Assembly (NCBI GenBank): GCA_964573385.1
Contig: CAZNLA010000001.1
Coordinates: forward strand, 1-51,434
Reading direction: 5' to 3'
From: an uncultured bacterium
GTDB taxonomy: Bacteria; Armatimonadota; Hebobacteria; CAIYQO01
DNA: 51,434 bases
Below the pieces are notes generated by a model. It saw only the letters and a program-made list of their open reading frames with translations, was not told the DNA's origin and searched no databases. Below, in pieces: positions 12,812-50,383 of the stretch (its first letter is position 1; each line of letters starts with the position of its first letter). The position numbers and the translations under genes are program-made.

Positions 12812-12822
12812 GGGATATATAA

Positions 12823-26494: not shown

Positions 26495-27496
26495 ATGAGT
26501 TCTCCATTTTGGCCTTCCTGCAAAGTTGATATGCTTTGCGGGGAGGCAGATTTTGATAATATAATAATTCGCACTGATAGTATGACTGATCCTCGGAATG
26601 ATCGTGTTCTTCCGATCATGCAAGAGGAACAGATATTTATGTGTCGTGAAATGCTTTCGGTGTTACGTAAATTACCTGCCAATGCGTTAATTCTTGATGT
26701 TGGCACAGGTAGCGGTATTTTTGCTATTTATGCTGCTAAACAAGGGTTTAGAGTAATAGCTATTGATATTGCTTCCCGGGCTATTTCAATGGCTATAGAA
26801 AATGCAATCACTAATAATATTGTGATCGCTGATTCACCAGGTAATTTGAAACCTGGCTCTATTTGCTTTATTCAAATAAGTGTGGAAGATTTTGCTGATA
26901 TTCAGTCAAATCAACAGGCATTTGATCTCGTTATTCTTGCACCTCCATACAACCCTACAGCACCAGGTATATCTCCAGCTTTACATGCTTATGCTGCTGA
27001 AGATGGGCAACGTGCATTCCGCGAGCAAATACAGATAGCGCCTCATCTGTTGAAACCCGGAGGATATTGTATAGGAAATCAGATGAGTATCTCAGATGCT
27101 ATCGGTAAAGTAATAGCAATTGACGAAATCATTGAATCATTTAACAATCATTGCGAAATTGAATACTCACGTATTCTTCAAAAGTTTCCTAATCACTCCT
27201 GGAAGGAAAATGATTTAGGTGATATATCCATTCGTGATTTTTTAGAAGGTATGTACCAGAACTATTTAACTGGTAATTTACCTGCTAAAAATAATATAAA
27301 TTCTTTAAATATTAAAAAATATATAGATAAGATGAGTATAAATGATAATTACTTTGCTTTGATATATTATCAGATACGAAAAGTTGATTCAAAAATGCCA
27401 AGTGATACAAAATGTTATACATCGCTATTATCTCCTCCTATCAGTTGGGAGCACAGGATTTGGCTTCACCAGTGTATTGTTGATTTTTTTGAATAA
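26495..27496 (+). CDS. Class I SAM-dependent amino-methyltransferase (HemK/PrmC-like, PPY motif)
   Basis: 333 aa, starting 19 nt after the SBP stop. Motif I is ILDVGTGSGIFAIYAAKQG (nt ~26695). Motif IV is FDLVILAPPYNP (nt 26939-26956). The N-terminal DPRNDRVLPIMQEEQIF is paralogous to the next gene. Confidence 0.7.
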   Translation: MSSPFWPSCKVDMLCGEADFDNIIIRTDSMTDPRNDRVLPIMQEEQIFMCREMLSVLRKLPANALILDVGTGSGIFAIYAAKQGFRVIAIDIASRAISMAIENAITNNIVIADSPGNLKPGSICFIQISVEDFADIQSNQQAFDLVILAPPYNPTAPGISPALHAYAAEDGQRAFREQIQIAPHLLKPGGYCIGNQMSISDAIGKVIAIDEIIESFNNHCEIEYSRILQKFPNHSWKENDLGDISIRDFLEGMYQNYLTGNLPAKNNINSLNIKKYIDKMSINDNYFALIYYQIRKVDSKMPSDTKCYTSLLSPPISWEHRIWLHQCIVDFFE

Positions 27497-27622
27497 TTTT
27501 AAATTGTTATTCTTTTCATCCCCAATATTAAACATTTTGAGGATAATAAATAAAAAATATTATATAGTCAGGAGGATTTTTATTTTTCAAGAAGAAAAGT
27601 AATATAGTGTTGTAAGAATAAC

Positions 27623-30600
27623 GTGTCATCGTTGGGAGATAATACTGATATGGCATCAATTGAGAACTTTGAATGGATTCCCTGTTTAGCTGATCGGGAA
27701 CGTGGGATAGCGTTTTTTGACGGTATCACTATTGAGGCTGATCCTGTCACCGATCATAGATGGGATAGAGTTCTCCCTGTTTTAGAGGAAGAGCAAGTCT
27801 TTTCCTGCCGTATGATGTCTCAATATGGAAATTTGCAACCGGGTGAAATAGTACTCGATTTTGGTACAGGTAATGGAGTATATGCAATTTGGGCAGCTAA
27901 AAAAGGTTGTAAAGTTCTTGCAATAGATGTTTCTCCTCGTGCAATTCAATATGCAGCATATAATGCAGAAAAAAATGGTTTGGAGTCATTAATTGCTAAA
28001 AGCATTAATGAGGCCAAAAATAAATTAGCAAATGCCAAAAATGAATCCATTATATTTTGCGAACTTTTTCTTGAAGAAGTAACAGAACATCAAGATTGTT
28101 TGAATGGTGTATTTGATGTAATTATTCTTTCACCACCATATAATCCTACTAAGGAAGGCGTACTTCCTCCAGAACATGCTTTCAGAGCAGGAGCAGATGG
28201 TCAGGAAGCTTTTGAAAAACATATTGCTATAGCTTCAACCTTAATTAAAAAAGGCGGTCGAATCATTGGTAATCAGATGGCATTATCTGATGGGAATGAT
28301 AATATTAGCGCCTTGGAAATAATAGCAGATAAATTCAAGGATAAAGTATTTGCTGTTAACTATTGTAAAATTATTCCTGATGATCTCCCAATACGTGAAT
28401 TTTGTGAAAAGCAGTATAGCCACTTATTAGAGAATGAAAAAGAAAAAGAGAATGAAAAAGATAAAGATAAAGATAAAGATAAAGATAAAGATACAAAGAA
28501 GTTTAATGATTATATCGAATCTATTTTATTAAATAATAGGGATTTAGATAAGTTTTCCATGGTATGGTATATGATACATGTTGATACTAAAAGAAAAATT
28601 ACTAAATTATCTATTCCTATAAAATGGGCACAAAATAAAGAAGATGATATTTGGAATAAACGTATTGATTTACATAAAAATATTGTTATGCGAACATCGA
28701 CGTTAAACAGTATTCCAGCACCGACTTTGTTTGTCAAAAATGGTCTTCCTATGTATAAGGCGATCCTAGGACCATCTGTAATAAAAAGTAAGAACGAGCA
28801 ACTTAATAATATATTAGATGATTCAAGTTTATTAAAAGGGAAGCAAATAGATAAGTTTATTAAAGATTCTGGGATGCTTGATTTTTTTGATATTATTTTT
28901 GTTGATACAGCACCATGGTTTAAACAAGCAGTTAATTTTGAAGATATTTTTGAAGAAGCAAGAGTTTGGATAAATGCAGATATTGAAAATGATAATGAGA
29001 ACGTATTAAATGCTACCCGATTGCTTATTAATTGGCAAATAAATACCTGGGCATTGCAAAATTCAAAATGTGGTATTTATCAACACCCTCATTTTACTGG
29101 TGCAAATGCACCAGGTGAATGGCGTGGTATTAATTATTCAACGATATCATCAAACGAGAAAATAGAATCAATATTATCACGCATACGTACAGTTACTGGT
29201 GAACCAAAAGAGACTGAAGCGACAAAAAAACAGTTTTGTGATATGTTGAAAAAAGTAAAGATGAGTTTTAAAACTTATAATAGTATAGAAAAAGATATTT
29301 CAGCATTAAAACCTATTAATAAAGAATGGGATGATAATGACGTTTTCCAACTGGACCCATCAACAAAAAGAATAAAAAAAATAGATAAAAATATTGATGA
29401 AGATGTTGATAATGTAATTGTTTATCCAAAACGTTCGTTTTCTTGTACTTTATCACTTGAGGATTTAGTAGATGCAGAACAACAAAGTAAAAAAGATCCT
29501 TACGATGAATATAGGGAGGCATTAGATGAAAGAATAAATCAATTATTCGAAAATGTAAATAAAACAAAATATAATAAAGAAAATGCAATTGCTAAAGATT
29601 TAGATTTATGTCATCTTGTCATGCATAAAATGGTTGATGAAGAATTTAGTAAAATTGTAAATGGTGATATTAATAACCAGTTTAGAACATCTTCTTTAAT
29701 TAGTATCCCTCTTACGTTATCTGAGAATTCTGACAATAAAGATGATAGTAAAATTCCAGATACATATCGTGGCAGTGCATGGATTTATGCGAAATACAAA
29801 AAAGGCGATTCATGGACCCCAAAGCATGAAGAAAAATTACTGGAACTTGTACGTGCATTATGGATGATTCATGATAGTAAATATAATACAGAGTCGACAG
29901 AACGTTATGCTAAAGCCACAAAGGAAATGGCTCTAAGTTCTTATGCGCGTGGTGCTGCTCATGGATTTAAAAATGCAATGCTATTGCCTCCGTTATTTCT
30001 TGAAAATACCGGTCGTTCAATGAGAAAATATAACAATTTAGGTGGAAAGTTAAAAGTTACGATTGGCTTGTTAACTGATATTGCTGAAGTTGAAGATAAT
30101 ATTCATATTACTAATTGCCTGTTACAACTGCTTCAATCACAAGCGCAACTGTTTTTTTGGGTAATGGCGCCAGATCGTTTTGAAGATGAGAAAAAAGATA
30201 ATCGTCAAGTACAACGTTGGCCACTGATGTCATGTGGTATTCTTACGGTATACACTGCTTTGTTGGGTTTAGCTATAATTTTTACAACAACAGATGTATC
30301 AGATTCTCGCGAGAGAATGTTAGTAGATGATAGTGAAACAAATTGGAGAAAAGCAAAAGCAAAATCTGTATCACGTGACGCTATACAAATTAATATGGGT
30401 GGAACAGTATATGATGATAATATGATTAATTTATCTCTGGCAAATGTTAATCTTCCTAATTTCTCTATATCCGCCTCATTTACTCCATCTGCAAATCAAA
30501 CTAGCAAGGTAAGTGGTGTTTTCCGAGGTGCATTAGAAGGTATACTTATTGAATTATTTCAAAATGCAATACGTGCTGCACTTGATTGTCCTTGTGATGA

Positions 30601-30913
30601 ACAATCATTTGTTAAATTCAGTGTTAAATCTGATGAATTACTCACTATTATTACAATTATTAATACAGCGCGAGCAGAGAAAGCAAAGCGTTTATGGAAA
30701 CTACTGGATATAGAAAAATCTAAAGATGAAAGTTATAATCCAAGTGGTGGCATTCGAGGTCTTAGGCAAGTACAAACGTTAATTAGTGAGATAGGTGAAG
30801 GATTACCTTTTAAAGAAGTAATCTATCCTTCTCCTGATGATGATTACGATCCCGATACATTTCCTGATGAAAAAATTGTTGAAATCACTTGGATAATTAA
30901 GTTAAATATATAA
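27623..30913 (+). CDS. Methyltransferase paralog fused to a large region ending in a histidine-kinase/GHKL-like module (weak)
   Basis: 1096 aa. The MTase motifs are DHRWDRVLPVLEEEQVF, VLDFGTGNGVYAIWAAKKG and FDVIILSPPYNP. There is a (DK)n linker. A possible H-box is GAAHGFKNAMLL (nt ~29954), a possible N-box is LIELFQNAIRAA (nt ~30551), and a possible G2-like box is SGGIRGLRQV. No DxGxG box is present. Confidence 0.55.
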   Translation: MSSLGDNTDMASIENFEWIPCLADRERGIAFFDGITIEADPVTDHRWDRVLPVLEEEQVFSCRMMSQYGNLQPGEIVLDFGTGNGVYAIWAAKKGCKVLAIDVSPRAIQYAAYNAEKNGLESLIAKSINEAKNKLANAKNESIIFCELFLEEVTEHQDCLNGVFDVIILSPPYNPTKEGVLPPEHAFRAGADGQEAFEKHIAIASTLIKKGGRIIGNQMALSDGNDNISALEIIADKFKDKVFAVNYCKIIPDDLPIREFCEKQYSHLLENEKEKENEKDKDKDKDKDKDTKKFNDYIESILLNNRDLDKFSMVWYMIHVDTKRKITKLSIPIKWAQNKEDDIWNKRIDLHKNIVMRTSTLNSIPAPTLFVKNGLPMYKAILGPSVIKSKNEQLNNILDDSSLLKGKQIDKFIKDSGMLDFFDIIFVDTAPWFKQAVNFEDIFEEARVWINADIENDNENVLNATRLLINWQINTWALQNSKCGIYQHPHFTGANAPGEWRGINYSTISSNEKIESILSRIRTVTGEPKETEATKKQFCDMLKKVKMSFKTYNSIEKDISALKPINKEWDDNDVFQLDPSTKRIKKIDKNIDEDVDNVIVYPKRSFSCTLSLEDLVDAEQQSKKDPYDEYREALDERINQLFENVNKTKYNKENAIAKDLDLCHLVMHKMVDEEFSKIVNGDINNQFRTSSLISIPLTLSENSDNKDDSKIPDTYRGSAWIYAKYKKGDSWTPKHEEKLLELVRALWMIHDSKYNTESTERYAKATKEMALSSYARGAAHGFKNAMLLPPLFLENTGRSMRKYNNLGGKLKVTIGLLTDIAEVEDNIHITNCLLQLLQSQAQLFFWVMAPDRFEDEKKDNRQVQRWPLMSCGILTVYTALLGLAIIFTTTDVSDSRERMLVDDSETNWRKAKAKSVSRDAIQINMGGTVYDDNMINLSLANVNLPNFSISASFTPSANQTSKVSGVFRGALEGILIELFQNAIRAALDCPCDEQSFVKFSVKSDELLTIITIINTARAEKAKRLWKLLDIEKSKDESYNPSGGIRGLRQVQTLISEIGEGLPFKEVIYPSPDDDYDPDTFPDEKIVEITWIIKLNI
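28460..28495 (+). repeat. (GATAAA)5 + GATACA in-frame hexanucleotide microsatellite
   Basis: Five perfect GATAAA units (28460-28489) followed by GATACA. It encodes DKDKDKDKDKDT inside ORF 27623-30913. Confidence 0.95.
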
Positions 30914-30974
30914 TGTTAAGTTAATATAAATTAATTTGTAAATTAATAACGTTCTTACACTAAAAGGAGAAAAA

Positions 30975-32894
30975 ATGCGACAAAATAATAGTTTATATAC
31001 AGTTTGGATAGCAGATGACCAAATTGGAAAAAGCGTGAAAGACCAATTAAGAGAAATATATACTGATGATTGTTTAATTATAAAGGGCTTTGATACCGCT
31101 TTCTCAGTACAAGAAGAAATTAATAGAGCTAAAAAACATAATGATATTTCTATCCTGCCAGACATTGCGGTTTTTGATGTAAATTTTAATGAGAATTTAG
31201 AACCTGGTGATGTTAAAGGTAATAATAAAGAAGGTATTCGTATTGCAGGTAATTTGCAAAAATTAGCCACAGAACTAGGCGTTTATGATAATATGAAACT
31301 TAAAGTATATACTGCTGATCCCAATATAGAAGAATATATAGAAAATTTTATAAAGGATTGTGGTGAAGCTTTAAAGTTTGAAGTTAATATAAAGCAAAAT
31401 TCGACTAGATTGAACTCTATTATTTTAGATGTAGAGGATATGTTATGGAAAATATCAACGGAACGAATTTTAAGCAAAGGATTAATCATATCCCCAAATA
31501 TATATATGTCATTATCGTTGTTTTGTACACCAATTATTCAACGATATAAAGATATGTCTTTAATTGAAGTAATCAATAAAGCAAAACAATATGCCTTAGA
31601 ACTTGCAAAGCAATTATCACAAGCTACGTTACCATTAGGAATGAATTTCCCCATATTAATTTTTTCTAATCCTCGTTCCATAGAACAAATTAAAAATGTT
31701 ATTTTCAATACACAATTAGGGTATGCTGTTAGACAAAATTATTATGATATAAATAGATCTTTAGGTGAAGCATTTGATAAGCTTGTTACTACATTGAGAG
31801 AATTACATAAAATAGAAAAATCTTTAGGACCTACTGATGAGGAAGAAGAAAAATGGGATAGTATACAAATTACAAGATTATATCCAATACGTGATGTAGC
31901 CGGCGATTTCCCTAATGTTGCTCGTTGGTTAAACAAAGATATTAATTTTATCGATGAATTATATATTGATTTATTAAAAGCAATAGACATCATTTCTGAA
32001 TATGATAACCACCTATTATTAGCTAAATCATTAAAAACAATTAATGGAGAACAGTTAACCCCGTTAGCAAAAGCCTGTCATAATGTTGTATGTGAAGATG
32101 ACATTGAAAAATGGGTAAATGAATCTCATCTTAATATAAACGAAATTAATGGTAGAACTATTATTCAAAGAATAGAGGATGCAGGAAATACAATTAAATC
32201 TGTGTATGAAGATCACTGTAGAAAAAAATGTAAAGATTATCACCTACTACCAAATAGAACCATTCCATTCGGATTAGATAGATGTAGTATATGTAAATTA
32301 AATATTGCAGGACCATATACAGCTTTTGGGAAAGATTATGAAAAAGGACAAGGTAGCATTCATAAACCACCTGTAAGAGAAATGTTTGAAGATACATTTA
32401 GGAATAATGTTAATAAAATCATATCTGTAGATGACCAAGAGATATTAAAAGAAGTTGGTAAGTTGGAAATAGAGGGTAAATTAGATACAGTAGTTTTAAC
32501 TGACTGGTCATATTTTTTTGTAAATACTGATGGAGTCTTTAATAAACTTTGTCAAAATGGGCAAAGTAAGATAGATACTTGCGAGGTTACTAAAATAATA
32601 ATTAACGTGACATATAATTCTAATCTTGACACAGTGGATTTTTATTTATATTTTAAACGTAGCCGTCCAATTGACCACACTAATGAATTTCCTGGCGAAA
32701 CAGGTCAATTACTAAAGCAATTATGCGGTTGGGGAGTTTCATATTATCGATATTCTAACGATCGCAACGAAATTGTAAAAAAATCTATATGGCCAACAAG
32801 TAATAAAAGTGATCGTATTCCAAATAATAATAATGAATACTTTCTTGAAGTAGTATGGACTTTTACGAATTATGCTAAAAAAAGGATTATCTAA
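30975..32894 (+). CDS. Hypothetical protein with an N-terminal receiver-like domain
   Basis: 639 aa with SD AAAGGAG. The receiver-like pattern is YTVWIADDQ ... IAVFDVNF ... LKVYTADP. A Cys cluster CRKKCKDY...CSICK is present. The C-terminal part is unassigned. Confidence 0.5.
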   Translation: MRQNNSLYTVWIADDQIGKSVKDQLREIYTDDCLIIKGFDTAFSVQEEINRAKKHNDISILPDIAVFDVNFNENLEPGDVKGNNKEGIRIAGNLQKLATELGVYDNMKLKVYTADPNIEEYIENFIKDCGEALKFEVNIKQNSTRLNSIILDVEDMLWKISTERILSKGLIISPNIYMSLSLFCTPIIQRYKDMSLIEVINKAKQYALELAKQLSQATLPLGMNFPILIFSNPRSIEQIKNVIFNTQLGYAVRQNYYDINRSLGEAFDKLVTTLRELHKIEKSLGPTDEEEEKWDSIQITRLYPIRDVAGDFPNVARWLNKDINFIDELYIDLLKAIDIISEYDNHLLLAKSLKTINGEQLTPLAKACHNVVCEDDIEKWVNESHLNINEINGRTIIQRIEDAGNTIKSVYEDHCRKKCKDYHLLPNRTIPFGLDRCSICKLNIAGPYTAFGKDYEKGQGSIHKPPVREMFEDTFRNNVNKIISVDDQEILKEVGKLEIEGKLDTVVLTDWSYFFVNTDGVFNKLCQNGQSKIDTCEVTKIIINVTYNSNLDTVDFYLYFKRSRPIDHTNEFPGETGQLLKQLCGWGVSYYRYSNDRNEIVKKSIWPTSNKSDRIPNNNNEYFLEVVWTFTNYAKKRII

Positions 32895-33646
32895 TGTCTG
32901 ATATTTCAATTGATAATAATCAAATACCTTTATATGAAGATATTCATAAGAATCAAGATGATGTTTTTCTTTTTATAGATAGTGAATTAGAAAAACATAA
33001 ACTTGATTATATAGTGAAAGAACATTCCAAATATTGTAAAAAAGGTTTTGACATAGCATGTCTGGATTTGTTTATTACTGATCCAGTGGTGAAAGTTGTA
33101 TTATTACATGTAAAGGATGAAAACAATTATAGTAAAAGTTATGCGAAGATTGCGATTAATGCATACAAGCCATTAATTATATTCTCTGGTGAGAAGTCGT
33201 TAGCTTCTGAGATGACTTCTAATTTAAAAGAAGAATTTATTCATGCAAAAATAGATGGTTATAATTCTGATGAATGTTCACGTAGATTACATCGAGCCTT
33301 AAGAACAAAGCCACCGAGTATTGATCCTTTATTTGGACACGATGAATTAGAAATTGTTCTTGAAGTTTTAACTATAATTTGGGGATTATCATTAAAACTG
33401 GAAATGAATAATGAGTTTAACTTAATTGGAAGTTTTAAAGAAAATGAAATGCTTCGGGAAGGATTATTTAATATTTGCAGTTCATACATTTGTCCGGATA
33501 ACCCTTGGGGAGAAGGTCAGTTAACTATTAAAGGTATAGATGATGAAATAGACAAATGCGAAAATAATACTCAAATTTTTAATTCTGTAATAGTAAAACT
33601 ACGAGATAGTTTACTTGAGTGGGCAGATAAATGTGATAAGATTTAA
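32894..33646 (+). CDS. Hypothetical protein (possible degenerate receiver fold)
   Basis: 250 aa. Its start overlaps the previous stop (ATCTAATG). The pattern VFLFIDS ... IACLDLFI ... PLIIFSGE is weak. Confidence 0.45.
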   Translation: MSDISIDNNQIPLYEDIHKNQDDVFLFIDSELEKHKLDYIVKEHSKYCKKGFDIACLDLFITDPVVKVVLLHVKDENNYSKSYAKIAINAYKPLIIFSGEKSLASEMTSNLKEEFIHAKIDGYNSDECSRRLHRALRTKPPSIDPLFGHDELEIVLEVLTIIWGLSLKLEMNNEFNLIGSFKENEMLREGLFNICSSYICPDNPWGEGQLTIKGIDDEIDKCENNTQIFNSVIVKLRDSLLEWADKCDKI

Positions 33647-33702
33647 CTGATGTTATGTATGTTTGATATTGTCTAAATGCTTATATTGAAAAAAGGTAAC
33701 AG

Positions 33703-34644: not shown

Positions 34645-34652
34645 TAATTCGA

Positions 34653-37286: not shown

Positions 37287-37290
37287 AGTT

Positions 37291-38205: not shown

Positions 38206-38206
38206 A

Positions 38207-41032: not shown

Positions 41033-41096
41033 AATTTCTATTCATACCGTTTAATTTTATGATTTGTAAATCAGATATTGATAAATTGGAGAAAAA

Positions 41097-43145
41097 ATGC
41101 CGAAAAAAATAATATGCACCGTTGAACCTGCAATTGAGAAATTACTTGAAAGTTTTTTTGTTAAATGGGATGTTCAAGCAATAATGATTCCTTGTTCGAA
41201 CTCTATGGGAAACTTAAAACAATTATTACCAGAACAAGAGAAGTTTGTTGAGTGTTGGGCGAATGCTGTTATTGAACATATTGAAGATGATTCTGCGCTA
41301 TTAGTTCAGGTTGATTTAATCCCAGGTAAACGTGCAAAAGGATATGGTTTATTACTGGCAGAACGAATACGTGCTGAACGTATAATACCTACAATTATTA
41401 TGACTCTTGATACTAATATTGCAACGCGCAATTCGACACGTCGGGCCAGGTTAGCAAATGGAAAAACACGATTTCCTGTTGTGCCTATTATTACAGGAGA
41501 TGATATACAAAATAAATTTGCATCTCGTATACCTTTTGTTGTGTGGGACCCTCTGTCAGGTAAAAATAGTTTTAATAAATCATATAATGCGGCTCAAAAA
41601 ACTATTTTTGGAATAAGACCACAGCAGGAAATAGTGGTAAAAAGTGAATTAGTTGAGGCACTTCAGGACGAAGAAGCCGCAGCACTGCGTCATCGAATTA
41701 AAAATATGTTAGCGAGTTTAAGAATATTAGACGGTGCGTATAGGAATGGGTGGTTAACATATGATGAAGTAACAAAATCGTTAACAACTTTACAAATGCG
41801 TGCTGTCGATGAAAATCAGAAGAAAGCATTGGAAAGTTTGGCTAATACATTGTATAATATTCTTCAAAGTTCATTATTACAAGAAGCAAGTCCTCGCGAC
41901 ATGACACTGGTTGTATGTGATGACTTATGGGAGACAGCTGGATGGGATCAGGTTATTCCACCCATGGTAAGTCATCTTTTTGGTATGGACACCCATGGGG
42001 TTGTATCACTAAATGAACTTGCGCTATATTTAGAAAAAGCAAGTGAAGAATTAATTCCACCCCGCACATTGCTACTGGACGTTCATGTCGGAACAGAAAA
42101 TGTTGATGCTGATTATTTAGAATATTTACACAAAGATTTCCCGGATCTGGATATAATTTTATTTACTACAGATTTGAATGATGGTGTATTAGTCCGTAAA
42201 GTTTATGAATTGGGGTATCGAATATTTTTTAAAGAACTTGATGAATCGGCAAGAAATACTCGTCAATATGCTACTCACCTACGGCAAATGCTGGAACAAT
42301 CTATCAGGTCATATCCCATTATGCATTTATTACAATTTGCTGAAAAAGCAGATAGTTCTGTAATGGTGGCCGAACCGGCAGCAGTTATTAAAACGATGCA
42401 ATCAGTAATGAGATTGTGGAGAGACACAGGTGAAACGTCCAGTGTATTAGGATTGACCGCTTTGCATGAAAGGCTGACAAAGTGTGTTCACGCTATGGCA
42501 AACCATAGGGAATCTCGATTCCCTACCAAAGTAAATAGTAGTAGTGTTGATTGGGGTTTAGTATTGTCGAGAATCTGTAATTATTTAAATGTTAATGTCA
42601 ATGATTGTGGTTTACCATTTACACAATTATTTCAAAACACATTTTATTTAGCTAAATATTCACGTAACCAGATGGCGCATAATGCAGATATGATACTTGA
42701 AGCAGACACTAATATGCCTGCGTTAGGCATTGCACTAACGCAAATAATCGCAAGTATAACGTTATCGGGTGTAGCATATCCGATAGCTATACAAAATTCG
42801 AATGAAATATTAGATGATGAGTACCTTAGTCTTAGTTTGTTGGAGTTCGCAAAATCAATATATTATTCAACAGAATCTATGAAGCCTCGGACGCGTTCCC
42901 GTTTCAAATCTCTGGTGGAAGATGGGGCATTTTGTGAAGCACCAAAATTACTTCAATTATTAAATGATTTATCTCATCAGGCAGATCCTATTTTTATGGG
43001 TAAAACAGGGATGCCGGTTTATACACCGACAAAATTTTTACACAATGAGATTGTAAATCTTAACAATAATCTTGATAAAATACAGGAAATGAACTCCTAT
43101 CAGTGGGTACTTGTTTTGTATTGCATATTAGTGTTAGACCGGTAA
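41097..43145 (+). CDS. Pseudo-receiver + REC + C-terminal HEPN-like domain protein
   Basis: 682 aa. REC is LVVCDDLWE...LLLDVHVG...IILFTTD...IFFKE. The HEPN-type motif is YSRNQMAHN (R at nt 42663, H at 42678). Confidence 0.55.
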   Translation: MPKKIICTVEPAIEKLLESFFVKWDVQAIMIPCSNSMGNLKQLLPEQEKFVECWANAVIEHIEDDSALLVQVDLIPGKRAKGYGLLLAERIRAERIIPTIIMTLDTNIATRNSTRRARLANGKTRFPVVPIITGDDIQNKFASRIPFVVWDPLSGKNSFNKSYNAAQKTIFGIRPQQEIVVKSELVEALQDEEAAALRHRIKNMLASLRILDGAYRNGWLTYDEVTKSLTTLQMRAVDENQKKALESLANTLYNILQSSLLQEASPRDMTLVVCDDLWETAGWDQVIPPMVSHLFGMDTHGVVSLNELALYLEKASEELIPPRTLLLDVHVGTENVDADYLEYLHKDFPDLDIILFTTDLNDGVLVRKVYELGYRIFFKELDESARNTRQYATHLRQMLEQSIRSYPIMHLLQFAEKADSSVMVAEPAAVIKTMQSVMRLWRDTGETSSVLGLTALHERLTKCVHAMANHRESRFPTKVNSSSVDWGLVLSRICNYLNVNVNDCGLPFTQLFQNTFYLAKYSRNQMAHNADMILEADTNMPALGIALTQIIASITLSGVAYPIAIQNSNEILDDEYLSLSLLEFAKSIYYSTESMKPRTRSRFKSLVEDGAFCEAPKLLQLLNDLSHQADPIFMGKTGMPVYTPTKFLHNEIVNLNNNLDKIQEMNSYQWVLVLYCILVLDR

Positions 43146-43177
43146 TATTATGAAAATATATAATTTGAAGAAATAAA

Positions 43178-44047
43178 ATGTTAAAAAACATCTATCTAAT
43201 TGAAGAAAAAAATTATACTGTTCAGGAACTTGATTTATTGTTTCCGGGGCAAGCAATTGTTGCAGTAGACTTTGCTGTTTCTGGTATTGAAAGATCATTT
43301 ATTAAAAATGGTTTGCATACAGTTGGATTAGTTTCAAATTGTGACCATCACATACCAGTGTCTCAATTTGAAAAAGTAGTATCAAGCACAAATTTAGCTA
43401 TATGCTATGTTAACCAATATGGCAAATTACCCGAGAAAACTGTTGTTGTGATAAATCATGTAGATTGTGACAGTGTTTTAGCTAGTTTGATTCTGAAAGG
43501 ATTTTTACCTACTGATGATAAATTTGGAAATGCAGCTATTGCTGCCGACCATACAGGTGAAGAAAATGATATTGCTGATTTGTTAAATTCTTTACAAAAG
43601 TTTAAAAGTTTAAATTATTCAGTAAACAATTTAATGTTATTTTTAGGGGAAGATCAAATTCCTAAGAAGGTATTAGACCTGATTGAAATACGTCGGGATG
43701 ATCGAAAAAGAGCATGGGAATTAGTGGAAAATGCCGGATTAGAGTTTCTTGATGGTGTATATTATGGTACTTTGAATAGAAAAATTGATGGTGCATTTCT
43801 GCCGGCGCTTTTGCCAGATGCGAAGATTATATTAATATTTACTCCGCTTAATGGTGATGCTAGTCGTTTAGAGGTAAAAGTTCGTTTGGGCTTTAACGCA
43901 CCTGAAGGGAAACATTTAAATAATATTGGAATAAAAGAGTTTGACCCAGCATATGGTGGACGTTGGAATGCAGGGTCAAATAAACGCGGTGGTGGAACAA
44001 GCTTAAAGCCGTTAGATTATGTAAAAGAGATTCTAAAAAGAATTTAA
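43178..44047 (+). CDS. Hypothetical protein, possibly a DHH/DHHA1-like phosphoesterase (weak)
   Basis: 289 aa. VVVINHVDCDSVLASLIL resembles the H-x-x-D-x-D-x-x-x-S DHH motif. NCDHH and AADHTGEEN are also present. The C-terminal YGGRWNAGSNKRGGG resembles the DHHA1 GGGH..AAG motif. The motif order is not canonical. Confidence 0.3.
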   Translation: MLKNIYLIEEKNYTVQELDLLFPGQAIVAVDFAVSGIERSFIKNGLHTVGLVSNCDHHIPVSQFEKVVSSTNLAICYVNQYGKLPEKTVVVINHVDCDSVLASLILKGFLPTDDKFGNAAIAADHTGEENDIADLLNSLQKFKSLNYSVNNLMLFLGEDQIPKKVLDLIEIRRDDRKRAWELVENAGLEFLDGVYYGTLNRKIDGAFLPALLPDAKIILIFTPLNGDASRLEVKVRLGFNAPEGKHLNNIGIKEFDPAYGGRWNAGSNKRGGGTSLKPLDYVKEILKRI

Positions 44048-44127
44048 TAAATATGACACAGGTAAAAGTTTTAAATATCAGATATCAGAAATAAGAATAA
44101 TTTTCAAGTCTATAAGAGGTGAATATT

Positions 44128-46782
44128 ATGAGCGCAAAATTAATAAAGTTGGATGAAGAGAAAATTTTATTTGCAGACGTTGATATTGCAGCTGTATTTT
44201 TGGGTCAAGATATCACTAATATTGAATCTTTAAAATTTGAAAATGTTAAAACTTGTAAGCTGTTGTATGTTTATGCACATTCATATACTAAGTACTGTAA
44301 TAAAAGATCTGATTTTGCTGGATTGCAGAAATTAGAGCAAGCAATAATAGAATTAGATAACCATGATATTAAAATTATTGTATTTGGTTTTCTTACTAAA
44401 AATGAGTATGGTGTATTTTCGTATCTGACTAATAACCCTACAATAATTTATAAACAACTTCCATTATGTCATGATCAATTGTTTTCAGAAGATGATGCCT
44501 TAAGTACTGTAGATGTTAGAGAGCGACAATTACTAAGGCTTAAAGCATCAGAGCGGCAATTAGAACTTACATTTGCAACAGAACGTCATAAGTTTATAGG
44601 ATTAGCAGCAGCAGTTAGAATATATTTAGGAAAGGTAGCAATACATTATAAATGTTTTAAACAAGATTATGATGAAATTAAAGAAGAATTAAAAAATTTT
44701 ATAGAAAGAGCGAATAAGTATAAAATACCAATTGATATTGATATCGATAATTTGATAATAAAAATAAAAAAACATCATGAGATTCTAAAAAGAATTAATA
44801 TAGACCTACCGGTTAGTTATTCTATAAAAATTCCGAAATGTAAAGTATGGATGTTAGACGATAATGCTGAGAATCATATGTGGGATATAGTGTTAAAAGC
44901 TATATTTGGCGATACGAATGTGAAATATGTAAAATCATGGAATGAATTTAAAGAATGGGATGTGTTTAAGAGAAGTATTATAGATAATACTGTTGACAAT
45001 TTTCTTATTGTTGATTGTAATTTGGGAGAAAACAATGAAATTGGCATAGAACTTCTTCCTGCAATCAGATCTGTATTACCTGAAATTAACATTATAATGA
45101 TGAGTGCTTTTGATGATGCAGAGACGGCATTATTAGCATTAAGAGCTGGTGCAAACTCTTATTTTGTTAAAGAAATTGGCGATTACAATGATCGTTCTTC
45201 AATAAATTATTATTGTAGTTTTATAAAGAGATTTAAAATTGATTCGAAATATAGGAATATAATAAAATTATGGCATCAATATTTAAAATCGACCCATAAT
45301 TGTAGCGAACTTTACGTAACTCAAATACTTATTTCGTTTTATTTTATGTTTTATTTTTTTGACATGAAAAGATGGGGGTATTTAGGATTATCAATTCCAG
45401 AAGAAAGAAAAAATGCTTACCTAATATCAGTCGTTAATCTTTGTCAAATTGGGGAAGGAATGTTTTTTAAAGACGAACAAATAGCTATAAAGGTTAGGCA
45501 TGGTTACCCAATAACATATAAAGATGCATATGATTTCTTTGAAAAAATAATTAATGCCAATTTTCGTGATAATAAGAAACCTATTGAAATAAAATTACAT
45601 ACAATACAACCATATCTTCCTCGATATAGTCCGTATACTATAGATGACTTAAGAGCAGATGGTACATTTCCTGGTGTGCAACGTAAAGAGATGCGTATTA
45701 CGCACGATGATGCAACAATACGAGCAACGGATGAATTATTAAGGGGTATAAATTGTATTAACAAAGAAGATTTTAACGATGATACTTTATTGGCATGTAA
45801 TATAGAAATTAATGAAACATTTATAAAAAAAGACCATGATATACTACTAATGGATTATGAGATTAATAATTGGATTCTCACTTTGAAATCAATTTATCCA
45901 AACGCGGAATATTATAGTTTTCAAAAGGAAGGATTAAAAGGAATATCGATTAATCATCTGAAGAAATATTCAGTAATTATTATGGATTTAAAAATGCCTA
46001 CTATAAAAGATGGATTATGGTTATTACAACAACTACGAGATATAGATCCTTCAATACCCATAATTGTTATTTCTGCTTCAACTGACTATTTAGTTGCTGA
46101 ACGATGCCTTCAGTATGGTGCAATGGATTATATTTGTAAAGCATTACCATATTCTCGGGATTTTAAGCAAAGTCAGTTTTTTTTGAATCGTATACTAAAA
46201 AGTATCGATAAAGCATCTAAATACGGAAAGGGTAAGATTAGAAATTATAACAGTTTTATTGACAAACTTACATCTTTAAAATGTTTGCAAAATACAAGTC
46301 GTGAAGAATTTAGAATTATAAAAGGATGTACATTTAATAGTGATTATTTGCCTGAAGGTAATTGGGTTGATTATTTAAAGGCTGATTTATATTTATTACG
46401 TTTATTATTATATTATTATATAATTAATGTTGATGATGAAATACTATTACCAATTGATGTATGGAGAAAAGATATATATAAATTGAATAAAAGCGAAATG
46501 ATATTTAATTTGATTATATTAACAGCAGCAAGAATAATCGAAAATATAACCGAATGGGAATATAGCTTGAGAACTGAACCATCAAAAAGAATAAAAAGAA
46601 AGGATAATAAAGATTTGCCTTATTTAGCGAAAAATTATTGGAATAGAAATGCTGGTACAATTTTAAGTAAACGTAATGCATTGATACATGGTTTAAAAAA
46701 TAATGATAGTATTTGTATATTAGATGTTTTTGATACTATAATGACAATGATTAGAAAATTCTCTAAATTAACCAATATTTAA
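44128..46782 (+). CDS. Pseudo-receiver + two REC domains + C-terminal HEPN-like domain protein
   Basis: The track ORF starts at GTG 44119. ATG 44128 lies 8 nt after AAGAGG. REC1 is VWMLDDNAE...FLIVDCNLG...IIMMSAF...SYFVKE. REC2 is ILLMDYE...VIIMDLKMP...IIVISAS...DYICKALP. The HEPN-type motif is SKRNALIHG (nt 46672-46689). Confidence 0.6.
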   Translation: MSAKLIKLDEEKILFADVDIAAVFLGQDITNIESLKFENVKTCKLLYVYAHSYTKYCNKRSDFAGLQKLEQAIIELDNHDIKIIVFGFLTKNEYGVFSYLTNNPTIIYKQLPLCHDQLFSEDDALSTVDVRERQLLRLKASERQLELTFATERHKFIGLAAAVRIYLGKVAIHYKCFKQDYDEIKEELKNFIERANKYKIPIDIDIDNLIIKIKKHHEILKRINIDLPVSYSIKIPKCKVWMLDDNAENHMWDIVLKAIFGDTNVKYVKSWNEFKEWDVFKRSIIDNTVDNFLIVDCNLGENNEIGIELLPAIRSVLPEINIIMMSAFDDAETALLALRAGANSYFVKEIGDYNDRSSINYYCSFIKRFKIDSKYRNIIKLWHQYLKSTHNCSELYVTQILISFYFMFYFFDMKRWGYLGLSIPEERKNAYLISVVNLCQIGEGMFFKDEQIAIKVRHGYPITYKDAYDFFEKIINANFRDNKKPIEIKLHTIQPYLPRYSPYTIDDLRADGTFPGVQRKEMRITHDDATIRATDELLRGINCINKEDFNDDTLLACNIEINETFIKKDHDILLMDYEINNWILTLKSIYPNAEYYSFQKEGLKGISINHLKKYSVIIMDLKMPTIKDGLWLLQQLRDIDPSIPIIVISASTDYLVAERCLQYGAMDYICKALPYSRDFKQSQFFLNRILKSIDKASKYGKGKIRNYNSFIDKLTSLKCLQNTSREEFRIIKGCTFNSDYLPEGNWVDYLKADLYLLRLLLYYYIINVDDEILLPIDVWRKDIYKLNKSEMIFNLIILTAARIIENITEWEYSLRTEPSKRIKRKDNKDLPYLAKNYWNRNAGTILSKRNALIHGLKNNDSICILDVFDTIMTMIRKFSKLTNI

Positions 46783-46803
46783 TAATTTTAAAGGTGACCC
46801 ATT

Positions 46804-49800
46804 TTGTCAACACTACTTTATATCGATGGTTATGAATCGAGTATACCTAACTGTGATGCTGAAAATCAGGTATTTTATATAACTGATGATGTTGCAACTT
46901 TGTATGCGTCAGAAGCTAATCAGAATATTAAACAAATATCGACGATTGAAGAGATAAATGGTATTACAAATATTCTTATACATTTAAATTCTGGGAGTAC
47001 TGTGCGTTCTCAGCGGAAAGGTATTCAATGGTTAAAACGTTTTCGCGTTTCAATGTACCAAATTAATAGAGTTGATTTAGCATCTTTACCAGCCTTGTTA
47101 TATTCTTTTGAGGATGAGTATTTGTTACAGGATACTTTTCCGATTCTCACACAACCGGGTCATACATTCTGTCAGTTGCCGACTTCATTATTAGAACTAA
47201 AAGAGAAATTAGTGAATATTTCAAAAGTTCCTGATTCAATCCTATCAGATCTATTGTGTTTTCACTGTCTTGATGATGTATGGGGACGATTAGAACATGA
47301 TTTAACCAATACTTTGAGTGATCCTAAATATTTTAATGTTGCTAAAAAAATATTGAAAGAGTGGGGTAGATTAATTGTATCTATTTGTCCAAATATAACC
47401 AGTGTTTTTAAAGAACTAACAGATGCATTTAATGGTTTAGGACATACTTATAATTCAAATAAAGTACAACATGCATTTTTTATGATAGATAAAATATCTG
47501 GTATATTGCGCGGTGAGTCTGAAGATGAATTGTTGGTGGATGCACCTTATGAATACCCACCACTAGACTGGGAAAGAATTTTAGTGGCTGATGATCGTGG
47601 TTATGAGATTTCTACAATACAACGTTTAACAAGAAAAGGATATAGAATTGAAGTAAAAACTAATATTGATGATTCTGTTGAATATTTACGCAATAATAAA
47701 TGTGATGTAATCTTATGTGATTTACATTTCCCTACCCGCAGTGATGGGGAATTCATGATTAAAATTGCTAAAGAAAAGTGCAAGGTAGTTATTGTTATAT
47801 CACGTGCTCCATTACCAAGTGATTTAAGATTACCGGCTAATGTTCTTAATGCTTGTGGCTCATTACGTTTTCAGGACTCAGAAAGAATACATCAATTAAT
47901 TTGGTCATCAGCAAAATTAAAAGGTATAATATCACCTGCTTTTGTTAGTAATCGTTTAAAGCAAAATATGCTTTATGACTCGACTCTTTTACTTAAATAT
48001 GAAATATTTTCTCGTGTTAAACATTGGGAATCGTTGCCGAAAGCAATTGTCGACGCTGTAAGTTCTATGAGTGATTTAGTATCTTCTGGTGTATTATCAA
48101 CTGAAGATACTAAGATTGTTAATGGATTTATAGATGAAATGAAGAGAAATTATATTTGTACTGAATTAACCTTTGCGCATATAAATGGGTTAGTCAAATA
48201 CTTATCTAAAAGTAATATAAAAACTCAAAACCGGCAAATTAACGATATTTTACATAATACAATCAAACAGCATATTGGTATAGCTAATGCTGGCATCAAA
48301 GATTTGTATAATAGATTGACCTTATTAAAGTTGCAATTAAAAGACGTTATACTTAAAAAGAAATATGAAAAACTTGACGTCGCGATTAGAGCATGTAAAA
48401 ATACCCGGATAAGTTATAAGGGAATACATAACTTATATGAAATTATTAGTGAAATAATAGATTTTTTACCAGTTGAAATCAATGCATCTGAATTTATAAA
48501 CAATACCAGTAAAACCAGAAATTATGGAAAAAAGATAGTTATTGCTTCTATAGAAGATAATCTGTTGTGGCATGAACAAATTGCGAATGCTATAAATATA
48601 ATTGGGAAACGTATTGGTTTACCGTATTTAATAAGTTTAAAATTATATAAAGATGTTGAATCTGCTTTAAACGATGCCACTGGAATTCCTTCATTATTAA
48701 AAGATAACATATTTGTCATTTTTATTTTAGATATGAATATACCGTTATATCAGGGTCAGAAGATATCAGATATAAATAATGAAGCAGGATTTGGATTACT
48801 TAAATGGGCAAAAGATATAAAGCGCAATCTGCCGGTAATTGTATTATCACAGCCATCATATATAATAGATGACCAGATTCGTGCATTAAATTGTGGTATT
48901 GATTATTTTATTTATAAAGTTCCTGGCAATTTGTTTAATTTAGTCAAAGCGATTGAAAATATAATTTATCAATCTTCGTTTGGTAGAATATCCTTTTTAG
49001 CGAATAATAATAAAGAGATATTGGCAGATGATGTTTTAATTAAATTAACGAAAAAAGAATATGATGTAATATATACTTTGTGTTGGATTACAAATGAAAA
49101 ACGAACAGTAGAAGAATTGAGTGGTAATAGACCAAACAAGCCATTTAAGATTCATGCTACGGATTTTAATTTGATGCCATATTCTGATATTGATGTTAAC
49201 ATACAAAATATTAGAGTTAAGATATTTAATACTTTTAAGAAAATCGGTAAATCTGTTAATCCGGATGACTTTTTATTTAAAGAAAATAATTTATATATTG
49301 TAAAGGCTGAAAGTATATTCCCGGAAGATAGAGAGATTATTCCTGAAACATATTTAGATTCAAACAATAATCGCATGAAAAAGATATCATCTAAATATAA
49401 AATATTAGTTGTAGAAAATGATCCGGTTTATTTAGATTATATTGAAGAGTTATTGAAAAGATTGTATCTTGTTGTTTATACTGCAACAAACAAGTCTGAT
49501 GCTGTTACAATACTTGAAAATAATAAAATTGATATAATATCACTTGATTTGCATATTCCTGCTAATCAGAATGAATATTTGTCTAATCATTCTGCTGGAA
49601 ATATTCAAAATGGTATCGATGTCCTGAATATTGCACGTGGATTACATCCAACAATTCGTGCAATAATACCGACTACAGTGTCGGAAACTAAAATATTACA
49701 GGAAGAATCTATAAGGCTACATGTAAGGTTAGAGGATATTGTTCCTAAAGGATACACTCTAAATGCAATTCCCTGGATAGCTCATTATTTAAATACCATA

Positions 49801-50238
49801 TCGCGTTTTATGTGTGAATTACAGAATGGTATGATGTTATATGCTGATACACGGAAAAACAGTCTGCTAATAGAAGTATTGCAAGGAAGTGAAATTGGAT
49901 CAGGAAAATTATATTTATATGTTAATGATCGTGATTCGAAATGGCAAAGAAATAAGAAAAGTCAGATAATGTATTTACTTTTAAATAATGCAAAATATAA
50001 CCCGGGAGGGATTTTAACATTAGGTGTTGTTAAATTAAAAATATGGTCAGGTGGTGTAACAGATGGAGCAATTCAATCACAAATCAGTGATATTAGAAAA
50101 ACAATTGGATCAACCTGGAATCTTTCAGGTGTTTCTCCAGAAAATGTTGTTGAATCTATACATGATAATACCCCGAGTCGTAAACTATTAGGAATTAAAT
50201 TGAATGCCGTTATTCTAGATCCAGATAATCTCATATAA
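46804..50238 (+). CDS. Giant response regulator: pseudo-receiver + REC + (REC - winged helix) x2
   Basis: 1144 aa with a TTG start. REC a is ILVADDRGYE...VILCDLHFP...VIVISRA. REC b is IASIEDN...FILDMNIP...VIVLSQP...YFIYK, followed by LIKLTKKEYDVIYTLCW. REC c is ILVVENDP...IISLDLHIP...AIIPTTV, followed by a C-terminal wHTH-like region (...IMYLLLNN...QISDIRKTI). Confidence 0.65.
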   Translation: MSTLLYIDGYESSIPNCDAENQVFYITDDVATLYASEANQNIKQISTIEEINGITNILIHLNSGSTVRSQRKGIQWLKRFRVSMYQINRVDLASLPALLYSFEDEYLLQDTFPILTQPGHTFCQLPTSLLELKEKLVNISKVPDSILSDLLCFHCLDDVWGRLEHDLTNTLSDPKYFNVAKKILKEWGRLIVSICPNITSVFKELTDAFNGLGHTYNSNKVQHAFFMIDKISGILRGESEDELLVDAPYEYPPLDWERILVADDRGYEISTIQRLTRKGYRIEVKTNIDDSVEYLRNNKCDVILCDLHFPTRSDGEFMIKIAKEKCKVVIVISRAPLPSDLRLPANVLNACGSLRFQDSERIHQLIWSSAKLKGIISPAFVSNRLKQNMLYDSTLLLKYEIFSRVKHWESLPKAIVDAVSSMSDLVSSGVLSTEDTKIVNGFIDEMKRNYICTELTFAHINGLVKYLSKSNIKTQNRQINDILHNTIKQHIGIANAGIKDLYNRLTLLKLQLKDVILKKKYEKLDVAIRACKNTRISYKGIHNLYEIISEIIDFLPVEINASEFINNTSKTRNYGKKIVIASIEDNLLWHEQIANAINIIGKRIGLPYLISLKLYKDVESALNDATGIPSLLKDNIFVIFILDMNIPLYQGQKISDINNEAGFGLLKWAKDIKRNLPVIVLSQPSYIIDDQIRALNCGIDYFIYKVPGNLFNLVKAIENIIYQSSFGRISFLANNNKEILADDVLIKLTKKEYDVIYTLCWITNEKRTVEELSGNRPNKPFKIHATDFNLMPYSDIDVNIQNIRVKIFNTFKKIGKSVNPDDFLFKENNLYIVKAESIFPEDREIIPETYLDSNNNRMKKISSKYKILVVENDPVYLDYIEELLKRLYLVVYTATNKSDAVTILENNKIDIISLDLHIPANQNEYLSNHSAGNIQNGIDVLNIARGLHPTIRAIIPTTVSETKILQEESIRLHVRLEDIVPKGYTLNAIPWIAHYLNTISRFMCELQNGMMLYADTRKNSLLIEVLQGSEIGSGKLYLYVNDRDSKWQRNKKSQIMYLLLNNAKYNPGGILTLGVVKLKIWSGGVTDGAIQSQISDIRKTIGSTWNLSGVSPENVVESIHDNTPSRKLLGIKLNAVILDPDNLI

Positions 50239-50319
50239 TGAATATAATTATCGTTTAATTTTTTTAACAGATAGACATCTGGTAAAAAAAATATTTAACA
50301 CATAAAATATCTCATTTAA

Positions 50320-50350
50320 CTCTTCGCATTTAAAATGCGGAGAGTTTTTT
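50320..50350 (+). terminator. Strong rho-independent terminator closing the REC cluster
   Basis: CTCTTCGCAT (50320-50329) pairs with ATGCGGAGAG (50335-50344), giving a 10-bp stem with one G-U. The loop is TTAAA and TTTTTT follows (50345-50350). Confidence 0.75.
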
Positions 50351-50352
50351 AT

Positions 50353-50383
50353 TTGACAGAGCGCCTTTATCCCCATGTAGTAT
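50353..50383 (+). promoter_or_regulatory. Promoter-like box TTGACAGAGCG-N14-TAGTAT upstream of the DUF4258-like ORF
   Basis: TTGACA (50353-50358), a 19-nt spacer, then TAGTAT (50378-50383). About 70 percent identical boxes with the same 19-nt spacing head each tandem repeat unit (50807, 51049, 51310). Confidence 0.4.

Follow-up and report, generated by a model that had tools for sequence, protein, structure and literature searches.

A 51,434-nt stretch of DNA from an uncultured Armatimonadota bacterium (contig CAZNLA010000001.1 of assembly GCA_964573385.1; the whole stretch is called the window below) contains a 12-gene operon, O1 to O12, that encodes a predicted histidine kinase together with about ten canonical receiver (REC) domains, many of them fused to a TrwB/VirD4/HerA-type ATPase, to winged helix-turn-helix (wHTH) DNA-binding domains, or to putative HEPN ribonucleases (RNases). 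The operon belongs to a rare, horizontally scattered family, and it is very likely that members of this family are self-contained units linking their own kinase to multiple receivers. The full proposal, that this is a branched phosphorelay operon gating several effectors with a role in conflict or defense, has in our judgment a probability of about 0.5. A first-pass annotation of the same DNA had suggested an undescribed, phosphorelay-gated conflict system. That the system is undescribed and phosphorelay-gated is well supported, the more so given a dedicated kinase, while conflict or defense is probably its role, as we infer from context.

All 12 open reading frames (ORFs) are intact, lie on the plus strand between 26495 and 50238, encode proteins of 250 to 1144 amino acids (aa), and form one operon. 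Spacing between neighbors ranges from small overlaps up to 126 nt. The overlaps of O6 with O7 and of O7 with O8 vanish with internal methionine starts near 37291 and at 38207, and the latter is probably the true start of O8, as the orthologue P0002 begins at the matching position. A co-directional cluster with such spacing and a closing terminator was described in the first-pass annotation and is confirmed on all three points, but its count of 13 ORFs was one too many: the possible 13th, a 125-aa ORF (50387-50764), is situated past the terminator and outside the operon. Also outside is a liv-type ABC transporter operon (21982-26475) directly 5′ of the cluster. G+C content is mosaic within the operon, at 0.35-0.39 in the O6-O10 region and 0.28-0.30 in its flanks, and three pairs of genes are duplicated (O5/O7, O6/O12, and O9/O11). 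An Rfam scan of the window gave no match. The features of the operon are as follows.

26495..27496, plus strand: O1, stand-alone S-adenosylmethionine (SAM)-dependent amino-methyltransferase of 333 aa with an APPY motif, HemK/PrmC-like
27623..30913, plus strand: O2, methyltransferase (aa ~63-232, SPPY motif), long orphan linker, and predicted divergent histidine kinase transmitter
30975..32894, plus strand: O3 ("X" family), N-terminal receiver, helical region, and C-terminal domain
32894..33646, plus strand: O4 ("Y" family, 250 aa), assigned by position and borderline similarity
33703..34644, plus strand: O5, pseudo-receiver (acceptor Asp replaced by Trp-Ser) and helical domain; O7 paralogue
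34653..37286, plus strand: O6, pseudo-REC, helical region, REC (aa 333-450), wHTH, REC (aa 623-737), and wHTH (aa 789-851)
37237..38205, plus strand: O7, pseudo-receiver plus helical protein, member of an 11-sequence family
38171..41032, plus strand: O8, REC (aa ~13-136), middle alpha/beta domain (aa ~160-500), and TrwB/VirD4/HerA-type P-loop ATPase (aa ~510-953)
41097..43145, plus strand: O9, pseudo-REC, coiled coil, REC (aa 272-380), and all-helical C-terminal domain; putative HEPN RNase
43178..44047, plus strand: O10, 289-aa protein, earlier a "DHH" candidate
44119..46782, plus strand: O11, pseudo-REC, coiled coil, REC (aa 244-352), middle region, REC (aa 576-675), and C-terminal domain with RNALIH motif
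46804..50238, plus strand: O12, pseudo-REC, REC (aa 260-350), helical region, REC (aa 583-706), wHTH, REC (aa 868-972), and wHTH
50318-50356, plus strand: intrinsic terminator (hairpin at 50318-50346 with 13-bp stem and 3-nt loop, then T-run) at the operon end

Key to this interpretation is the C-terminal part of O2. The region from aa 760 to 1096 aligns with the leading gene of related operons (L003_1392, L088_1, L090_2, L002_2, and L158_881; L labels denote the loci in our collection), and this alignment, A7, contains the hallmarks of a histidine kinase. In O2, the H-box histidine is residue 780 (nt 29960-29962, within GAAHGFKNAM), the GHKL N-box ExxxNA spans aa 977-982 (nt 30551-30568), and the G2 glycine is residue 1046. 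The N-box Glu, Asn, and Ala, another Asn, and the G2 Gly are invariant in A7, and the H-box His is conserved in 5 of the 5 sequences covering that region. When the A7 profile was compared with the PDB, nearly all matches with E values below about 0.1 were histidine kinases, led by 8u4x (1.8e-6) and the VicK-like 4i5s (4.3e-6) and also including ZraS, QseC, and HK853. The match covers both the dimerization and histidine phosphotransfer (DHp) domain and the catalytic (CA) domain, placing the family histidine on the phosphohistidine. Single-sequence Pfam matches were sub-threshold, both for O2 (HATPase_c_5, E 0.0024, 18.2 bits versus a cut-off of 22) and for L158_881 (a HATPase_c-type domain). 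A word-indexed protein search returned no homologue of O2 aa 341-1096, nor any match for a chimeric query of O7, O4, O10, O9C, O11C, O3C, and O13, but these negatives carry little weight and are unreliable for AT-rich proteins because the index missed O9 and O10, though identical sequences are in its collection. O2 is thus, as read from its sequence, a methyltransferase-fused, divergent histidine kinase. The single "weak kinase-like module" noted earlier in ORF 27623 was correctly recognized as a kinase and turned out to be stronger than that wording implied. Since O2 carries a histidine kinase transmitter, the receivers of the cluster are not orphans.

Nine REC domains were detected with a local hidden Markov model (HMM) that was refined iteratively on the cluster together with its related loci: two in O6, one each in O8 and O9, two in O11, and three in O12. 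Pfam itself matched REC in O6, O8, O11, and O12. Alignment to CheY and PhoB showed the acidic pocket, acceptor Asp, Thr/Ser, and Lys to be kept in eight of the nine, the exception being the first receiver of O12, which lacks the conserved Lys. A tenth receiver, at the N terminus of O3, was recognized by motif; its DD, D, T, and K residues align, its HMM score was weak, and its homologues L003_3718 and L090_960 had sub-threshold Pfam REC matches. Beyond these canonical domains, pseudo-receivers without the acceptor Asp form the N termini of at least six proteins (O5, O6, O7, O9, O11, and O12), bringing the total to about 16 receiver-type domains across 12 genes. The earlier counts of about ten canonical receivers and at least five pseudo-receivers therefore hold, as does the claim that effectors are wired to phospho-acceptor domains, with the ATPase, the HEPN-motif domain, and the wHTH each fused to residue-complete receivers. 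In O5 and O7, an invariant Trp-Ser occupies the acceptor position. The 11-sequence O5/O7 family has E24, W50, S51, P60, Q107, R124, W136, and other residues invariant, and O5 had no relative in the PDB.

So many receivers lacking an aspartate raise the alternative that phosphorylation plays no part: the kinase would be degenerate, and receivers and pseudo-receivers would be switches that respond to ligands or nucleotides, or would serve purely for assembly around the ATPase. Loss of the G1-box Asp in most kinases of the family fits this idea, as do the six or more aspartate-less receivers and literature proposals of kinase-independent receivers in VMAP and iSTAND. However, the H-box His, N-box Asn, and G2 Gly of the kinase are conserved, its profile matches true kinases over DHp and CA, and neither the O8 nor the O9 family shows any variation at the acceptor Asp, Thr/Ser, or Lys. 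Such invariance is hard to account for without phosphorylation, and we regard a phosphorylation-free scheme as decidedly unlikely.

Among the outputs attached to receivers is the ATPase of O8. The O8 receiver has a full set of functional residues (D20, D65, T95, and K120), and the motor part matches TrwB_AAD_bind, DUF87 (HerA), and TraG-D_C in Pfam, carries an all-alpha insert, and has a Walker A motif (GQTGTGKS) and Walker B motif (DEF) that are invariant in the O8 family alignment. An AlphaFold2 (AF2) model built from 41 sequences had a predicted local distance difference test score (pLDDT) of 88. Compared with the PDB by Foldseek, this model retrieved VirB4/TrwK with an E value of 5e-17 and TrwB with a template modeling score of 0.6-0.65 (target-normalized), with further matches to HerA, Cag-beta, DotL, and defense HerA proteins. 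PADLOC profiles pointed the same way, matching mad8 (E 1.1e-13, profile positions 26-261 of 314) and the HerA and DndH ATPase models. The VirD4/HerA-like P-loop ATPase proposed earlier is therefore confirmed by Pfam and by AF2/Foldseek. O8 has no membrane anchor; N-terminal to its motor are a receiver and a middle domain specific to the family.

Resemblance to TrwB, VirB4, Cag-beta, and DotL, together with the TrwB_AAD_bind and TraG-D_C matches, could also mean that O8 is a coupling protein and that the operon is left over from, or regulates, a conjugative or type IV secretion apparatus. We find this barely plausible, as the N terminus of O8 is a receiver instead of a membrane anchor, no relaxase, VirB, or pilus genes are present in the window or related loci, and no plasmid in PLSDB has the family. 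In sequence, the nearest relatives of the motor form an abundant family. The O8 ATPase half is 40-49% identical to a family of ~820-aa proteins from Patescibacteria (CPR, the candidate phyla radiation) that combine PF26449 with a TrwB-like domain and lack a receiver, with more than 590 matches among GTDB species representatives. A profile scan of genome contigs with the O8 family alignment was dominated by this family and yielded no REC-ATPase locus. One locus, L005, has two tandem copies of the Patescibacteria-type ATPase.

DNA-binding outputs occur in O6 and its distant paralogue O12. NCBIfam response regulator profiles matched O6 (877 aa), and its C-terminal wHTH (aa 789-851) matched Pfam Trans_reg_C with an E value of 1.5e-7. 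The other three wHTH regions, one in O6 and two in O12 (1144 aa), were individually Pfam negative. A joint profile of these three regions and their orthologues (A10) retrieved OmpR family DNA-binding domains from the PDB (ArlR, 2.4e-8; DrrD, 3.9e-8; and CovR, 2e-5), and because of this, all four OmpR-type winged helices of the first-pass annotation were accepted, one by Pfam and three by the joint profile.

The third class of output is found in O9 and its paralogue O11, which were linked by jackhmmer through aa 176-398 of O9 and aa 134-371 of O11. The O9 receiver has D275, D276, D328, and K379, and the C-terminal domain carries RNQMAH at aa 523-528 (nt 42663-42680). R523, N524, and H528 of this motif, along with the REC residues, are invariant in six full-length O9 family sequences (alignment A5). 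In O11, RNALIH is at aa 852-857 (nt 46672-46689), and distant O11-like proteins have RSMAEH (L003) and RNRVTH (L002) at the same C-terminal position. An AF2 model of O9 aa 395-682 was all-helical with a pLDDT of 58. Of the earlier claim of two HEPN-like domains, what stands is the presence of RNxxxH motifs and their invariance in the O9 family, while Pfam, PDB profiles, and AF2/Foldseek were uninformative. Calling these C-terminal domains HEPN is reasonable at the level of the motif.

The remaining gene products are less easily placed. O3 belongs to a family, X, whose C termini share an LxG(Y/W)(G/C) motif by eye; a GHKL fold was suspected there from motif-like strings, and the candidate was dropped after a PDB profile search gave no match. 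O4 had no Pfam or PADLOC match and was assigned to family Y by its position and by borderline phmmer similarity (E 0.035-0.075) to same-position genes of ~230-276 aa in L003 and L090, which are linked to one another by significant matches. O10 has no equivalent seen in related loci. Its earlier assignment as a possible DHH phosphoesterase fell away, as the Pfam match (E 0.007) reached 17 bits versus a cut-off of 28.1, covered motif I only, and had no PDB counterpart. Direct reading places a DHT about 27 aa past motif I; DHH motifs are usually spaced by about 80 aa. With phmmer, O10 also showed a weak similarity to the kinase family (E 0.26-0.47), which we discounted as spurious after the matching stretch turned out to be the H-box region.

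The first two genes encode methyltransferase domains. O1 matched Methyltransf_23/31 and PrmA in Pfam, matched PRK14968 and PrmC in NCBIfam below their cut-offs, and had PrmC (4dzr, E 1e-5) as its best PDB match. O1 and the N terminus of O2 are paralogues with 36% identity. Pfam thus confirms the two amino-methyltransferases reported earlier, which match best to models for HemK/MTQ2/PrmC and PrmA rather than to DNA methyltransferases. No specificity subunit or recognizable target recognition domain accompanies them, so that DNA, RNA, or protein could be the substrate. Methyltransferases are absent from all related loci with a visible 5′ end. Because they are HemK/PrmC-like and missing from related loci, the restriction-modification-style logic of "MTase + NTPase + nuclease" that the first-pass annotation had drawn on is unsupported. 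Between the methyltransferase domain and the remainder of O2, a short tandem repeat (28429-28493) encodes a low-complexity tract of Lys, Asp, Glu, and Asn.

About a dozen related loci, with G+C contents of 0.33-0.63, show that the gene set is kept as a unit in unrelated genomes. Their common order is kinase, REC-X, Y, an insertable pair of pseudo-REC protein and REC-ATPase, REC-wHTH x2, and REC-HEPN. The kinase gene leads the operon wherever the 5′ end is visible (L003, L088, L090, L002, and L158), and the region 5′ of the REC-ATPase module consists of the kinase gene, an ~500-aa REC-containing X gene, and an ~250-aa Y gene. The arrangement of kinase, X, Y, O5/O7-type, REC-ATPase, and O6- or O11-like genes is represented by L003, L087-L093, L001, and L002. 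An O5/O7 family gene is immediately 5′ of the REC-ATPase gene in L001, L003, and L087-L092, and in L002 and L093 this position is taken by a relative that has diverged further and has a complete receiver. On the 3′ side of the REC-ATPase gene are O11-like or O6-like genes, the former in L001, L088, L089, and L090. A compact variant without the ATPase occurs in L158 and L159 (kinase, 1114 aa; X, 548 aa; Y, 224 aa; O12-like, 1141 aa; and O9-like, 686 aa), and L160 and L162 have an O12-like/O9-like pair with the O12-like gene directly first. The family core is therefore kinase, X, Y, tandem REC-wHTH, and REC-HEPN, and the pseudo-receiver protein plus REC-ATPase is an insertable module. With its duplicated pairs and two added methyltransferase domains, the window has the largest version and is the most elaborate known member.

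Divergence within the family is uneven. L001, the nearest relative (G+C content of 0.51 versus ~0.33 for the window), matches the window order O5-O6-O7-O8-O9-O11, and its O6, O8, and O9 are 57-59% identical to those of the window (59% for O6, compared with 36% for the O6 orthologue of L003). O5 and O11 are 28-29% identical between the same two loci, and the proteins at the X and Y positions have no detectable similarity. Full-length REC-ATPase homologues are few. When 241 million metagenome records were scanned with the family-specific N-terminal half of O8, full REC-ATPase loci turned up 7 times, and an exhaustive HMMER search with O9 found 21 relatives with E values of ≤1e-3 among 1.84 billion representatives. 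Two related loci have unusual gene content. In L002, four genes (3500-9014) are inserted between kinase-X-Y and the pseudo-REC, REC-ATPase, and O11-like genes, encoding a prephenate dehydratase, a pyridoxal-dependent (tyrosine) decarboxylase, a 182-aa ORF, and a tyrosyl-tRNA synthetase (TyrRS). In L092, the gene 5′ of the O5/O7-like gene (1-966) encodes a leucine-rich-repeat-like stretch followed by a receiver-like stretch, recognized by eye, which suggests that the "sensor" position is variable.

If these components work as their domains predict, O2 would be a cytoplasmic sensor kinase, fused to a HemK-like SAM methyltransferase, that perceives a signal and autophosphorylates on His780, and the phosphoryl group would pass to the ~ten canonical receivers of O3, O6, O8, O9, O11, and O12. 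Phosphorylation would activate O8 as a soluble hexameric TrwB/VirD4/HerA-type translocase, O9 and O11 as REC-fused HEPN-motif proteins that are presumed RNases, and O6 and O12 as tandem REC-wHTH DNA binders. The Asp-less N-terminal receivers of O5, O6, O7, O9, O11, and O12 may serve as REC-REC docking modules that assemble or restrain the complex, with O5/O7-type proteins as a likely obligate partner of the ATPase, and the methyltransferase domain of O2 might report SAM or methylation status. Sensing of an invader could then lead to attack on RNA and DNA or to abortion of the infection, as in the Detocs defense system but with several effectors. A more specific version, offered tentatively, is that the family is a new class of immune system in which one kinase phosphorylates a pre-assembled, pseudo-receiver-scaffolded complex of translocase, HEPN protein, and DNA binder and so fires several effectors together.

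Signs typical of conflict systems include the rarity of the family, its G+C spread of 0.33-0.63, its uneven divergence, the mosaic G+C content of the operon, the shuffling and duplication of modules, and some defense-type neighbors. For example, L003 has a Pkinase-PP2C-vWA triad (16015-19808) on the opposite strand directly after the operon, and L002 has a NYN protein nearby. In the window, the neighbor of this type is the CRISPR/CARF block reported in the first-pass annotation, whose presence on the contig is confirmed.

Several findings weigh against the conflict proposal or parts of it. The CRISPR/CARF block and the cluster are separated by ~19 kb that includes the housekeeping liv ABC transporter operon, and other loci adjoin ordinary genes, such as those for TyrRS, PBP, and peptide deformylase. 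No member of the family was present in 72,556 plasmids (PLSDB) or 50,697 phage records (GenBank), giving no link to mobile elements; searches of PLSDB, GenBank phages, and IMG/VR returned only generic receivers or ATPase-only relatives. PADLOC found no complete system on the 12 ORFs, at E values up to 0.01 and then up to 10. In the kinase, the Asp of the G1-box DxGxG is gone, replaced by xN(S/T), and only L002 retains it (DNT), so that ATP binding could be impaired or atypical. The HEPN domains had no profile or structure match in Pfam, in the PDB profile search, or by Foldseek at E < 1 with the model of pLDDT 58. Finally, four OmpR-type DNA-binding domains suit plain transcriptional regulation equally well.

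This last point leads to a different account of the operon, as a nondefensive two-component network with multiple outputs, combining transcription (O6 and O12), a REC-gated translocase, and RNA turnover in a developmental, stress, or DNA-handling program. Canonical receivers with a kinase and four OmpR-type domains are what such a network would have, some loci lie among housekeeping genes, with the liv transporter directly 5′ in the window, and no known defense model fits. On the other hand, one would expect a housekeeping regulon to follow lineages coherently, and this family is extremely rare and patchy, with G+C content from 0.33 to 0.63. Its components differ in pace, some evolving very fast and others staying conserved, and its modules have been copied and rearranged. 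HEPN-motif effectors, like ATPases of the HerA/VirD4 type, are characteristic of conflict systems. We consider a purely regulatory role rather unlikely. Were it correct, the architecture would still be unusual, as its 12 genes together encode ~16 receiver-type domains and include REC-wHTH units in tandem, and the operon would be a test bed for how phosphate from one kinase is partitioned among many receivers and for the function of aspartate-less receivers. Should the defense reading be correct, His-Asp signaling would be expandable into a multi-effector defense machine, and the new, unannotated families would include REC-VirD4-like ATPases, their pseudo-receiver partner, REC-HEPN proteins, X, Y, and a clade of kinases lacking the G1 Asp.

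Other features of the window surround the operon. A CRISPR array with the 37-nt repeat GTTCGAACGACTAGAAGAATGCCGAAGGCATTGAAAC lies at ~800-1650, and a different repeat structure, with a period of 276 nt, occupies 54-693. Four consecutive CARF genes (3406-7538) encode a Csx1/Csm6 CARF-HEPN protein, a Card1-like CARF-PD-DExK protein, Csx3, and a transmembrane plus CARF protein; as a set they make up an ancillary block of type III CRISPR, and genes for an effector complex are not seen in the window. Between this block and a gene for an 8xMP membrane protein are three AT-rich ORFs (8591-20545; 1406, 747, and 1816 aa; G+C content of 0.26-0.33) with no Pfam or PADLOC match. At the other end, direct repeats of ~242-261 nt occur in at least three copies from 50354 to 51434 and continue past the end of the window, each with a promoter-like box, TGACAGAGCG...CATAGTATTATAT, and a fourth copy of the box lies just 5′ of the 125-aa ORF at 50387-50764. 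Farther downstream on the same contig are genes for a GH5 cellulase/Big_7 protein and a cohesin domain protein (L085 9145-11586).

Comparison with named systems agreed with the first-pass annotation in finding no match. PADLOC returned single-model matches to mad2 (core), mad8, HerA, DndH, and the REC-containing candidates PDC-M60B/C and SduA, and the searchable literature had no description of REC-VirD4-like proteins, REC-HEPN proteins, or this operon. MADS, a methylation-associated defense system that co-occurs with CRISPR-Cas in its host, resembles the cluster in being a large operon that combines a methyltransferase and a kinase with a HerA/DptH-like ATPase. In support of a MADS-type system, mad2 matched O1/O2 (E 3e-19), mad8 matched O8 (E 1e-13), and there are two amino-methyltransferases with (A/S)PPY motifs. 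The MacSyFinder model of the MADS authors has as mandatory genes Mad6 (Ser/Thr kinase), Mad7 (DndG/DptG-like), and Mad8 (HerA/DptH-like ATPase). O8 corresponds to the last, but mad6 and mad7 had no PADLOC match on any of the 12 ORFs at E values up to 10, and the mad2 match covers only the catalytic core (profile positions 276-393 of 492). Further differences are that Mad6 is a Ser/Thr kinase and the cluster has a histidine kinase, that MADS lacks receiver domains, that the cluster lacks counterparts of Mad3 (OLD/AbiEii), Mad4 (DUF4276), Mad5 (specificity subunit), and Mad7, and that the nearest methyltransferase relatives, PrmC and PrmA, are protein/RNA enzymes. Membership was rejected because two of the three mandatory genes are absent, and a MADS-type, methylation-based mode of action is very unlikely.

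Individual components resemble better-known proteins. Like TrwB/VirD4 and the HerA-type defense ATPases (Sir2-HerA, DUF4297-HerA, and DndH/DptH), O8 has the FtsK-HerA fold, an all-alpha insert, and intact Walker motifs; it differs in being soluble, in its N-terminal receiver and family-specific middle domain, in its pseudo-receiver partner, and in the absence of type IV secretion genes or a Sir2, DUF4297, or NurA partner. O6 and O12 follow the OmpR/PhoB regulators in having REC before a winged helix and in retaining the phospho-acceptor residues, but each has two tandem REC-wHTH units behind a pseudo-receiver and helical region, and O12 has a third receiver. Aspartate-less receivers (ALRs) are a described class, and the pseudo-receivers share with them an N-terminal receiver-like domain lacking the acceptor Asp; what differs is that six or more proteins of a single operon carry them and that the new O5/O7 family is coupled to an ATPase. 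Receivers have also been noted in the predicted conflict systems VMAP, iSTAND, and CoCoNuT type I-B, some of them proposed to be kinase independent.

By architecture, Detocs is the closest working analogue. In this three-gene system, the kinase DtcA phosphorylates a receiver-effector, DtcC, whose one effector is usually a PNP ATP nucleosidase, while the spare receiver DtcB acts as a "buffer" for leakage. No PADLOC match was named Detocs, in a release (PADLOC-DB 2.0.0) for which inclusion of Detocs models is unconfirmed. Both systems have an operon-encoded cytoplasmic histidine kinase (O2 profile, best PDB E value of 1.8e-6), receivers fused directly to effector domains (confirmed here for REC-ATPase and motif-based for REC-HEPN), extra receiver-type proteins without enzymatic output, and modular, swappable effectors. 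In contrast to Detocs, the cluster has 12 genes that carry ~10 receivers and 6 or more pseudo-receivers, with effectors of three classes; its kinase is fused to a methyltransferase and lacks a TPR sensor; and there is no stand-alone canonical receiver of the DtcB type. The gene families differ as well, and the resemblance lies in the shared logic. Detocs, with its single effector, is the only experimentally supported case of a phosphorelay used as immunity that we found, and it provides the precedent that a kinase-to-REC-effector operon can act as an antiphage system.

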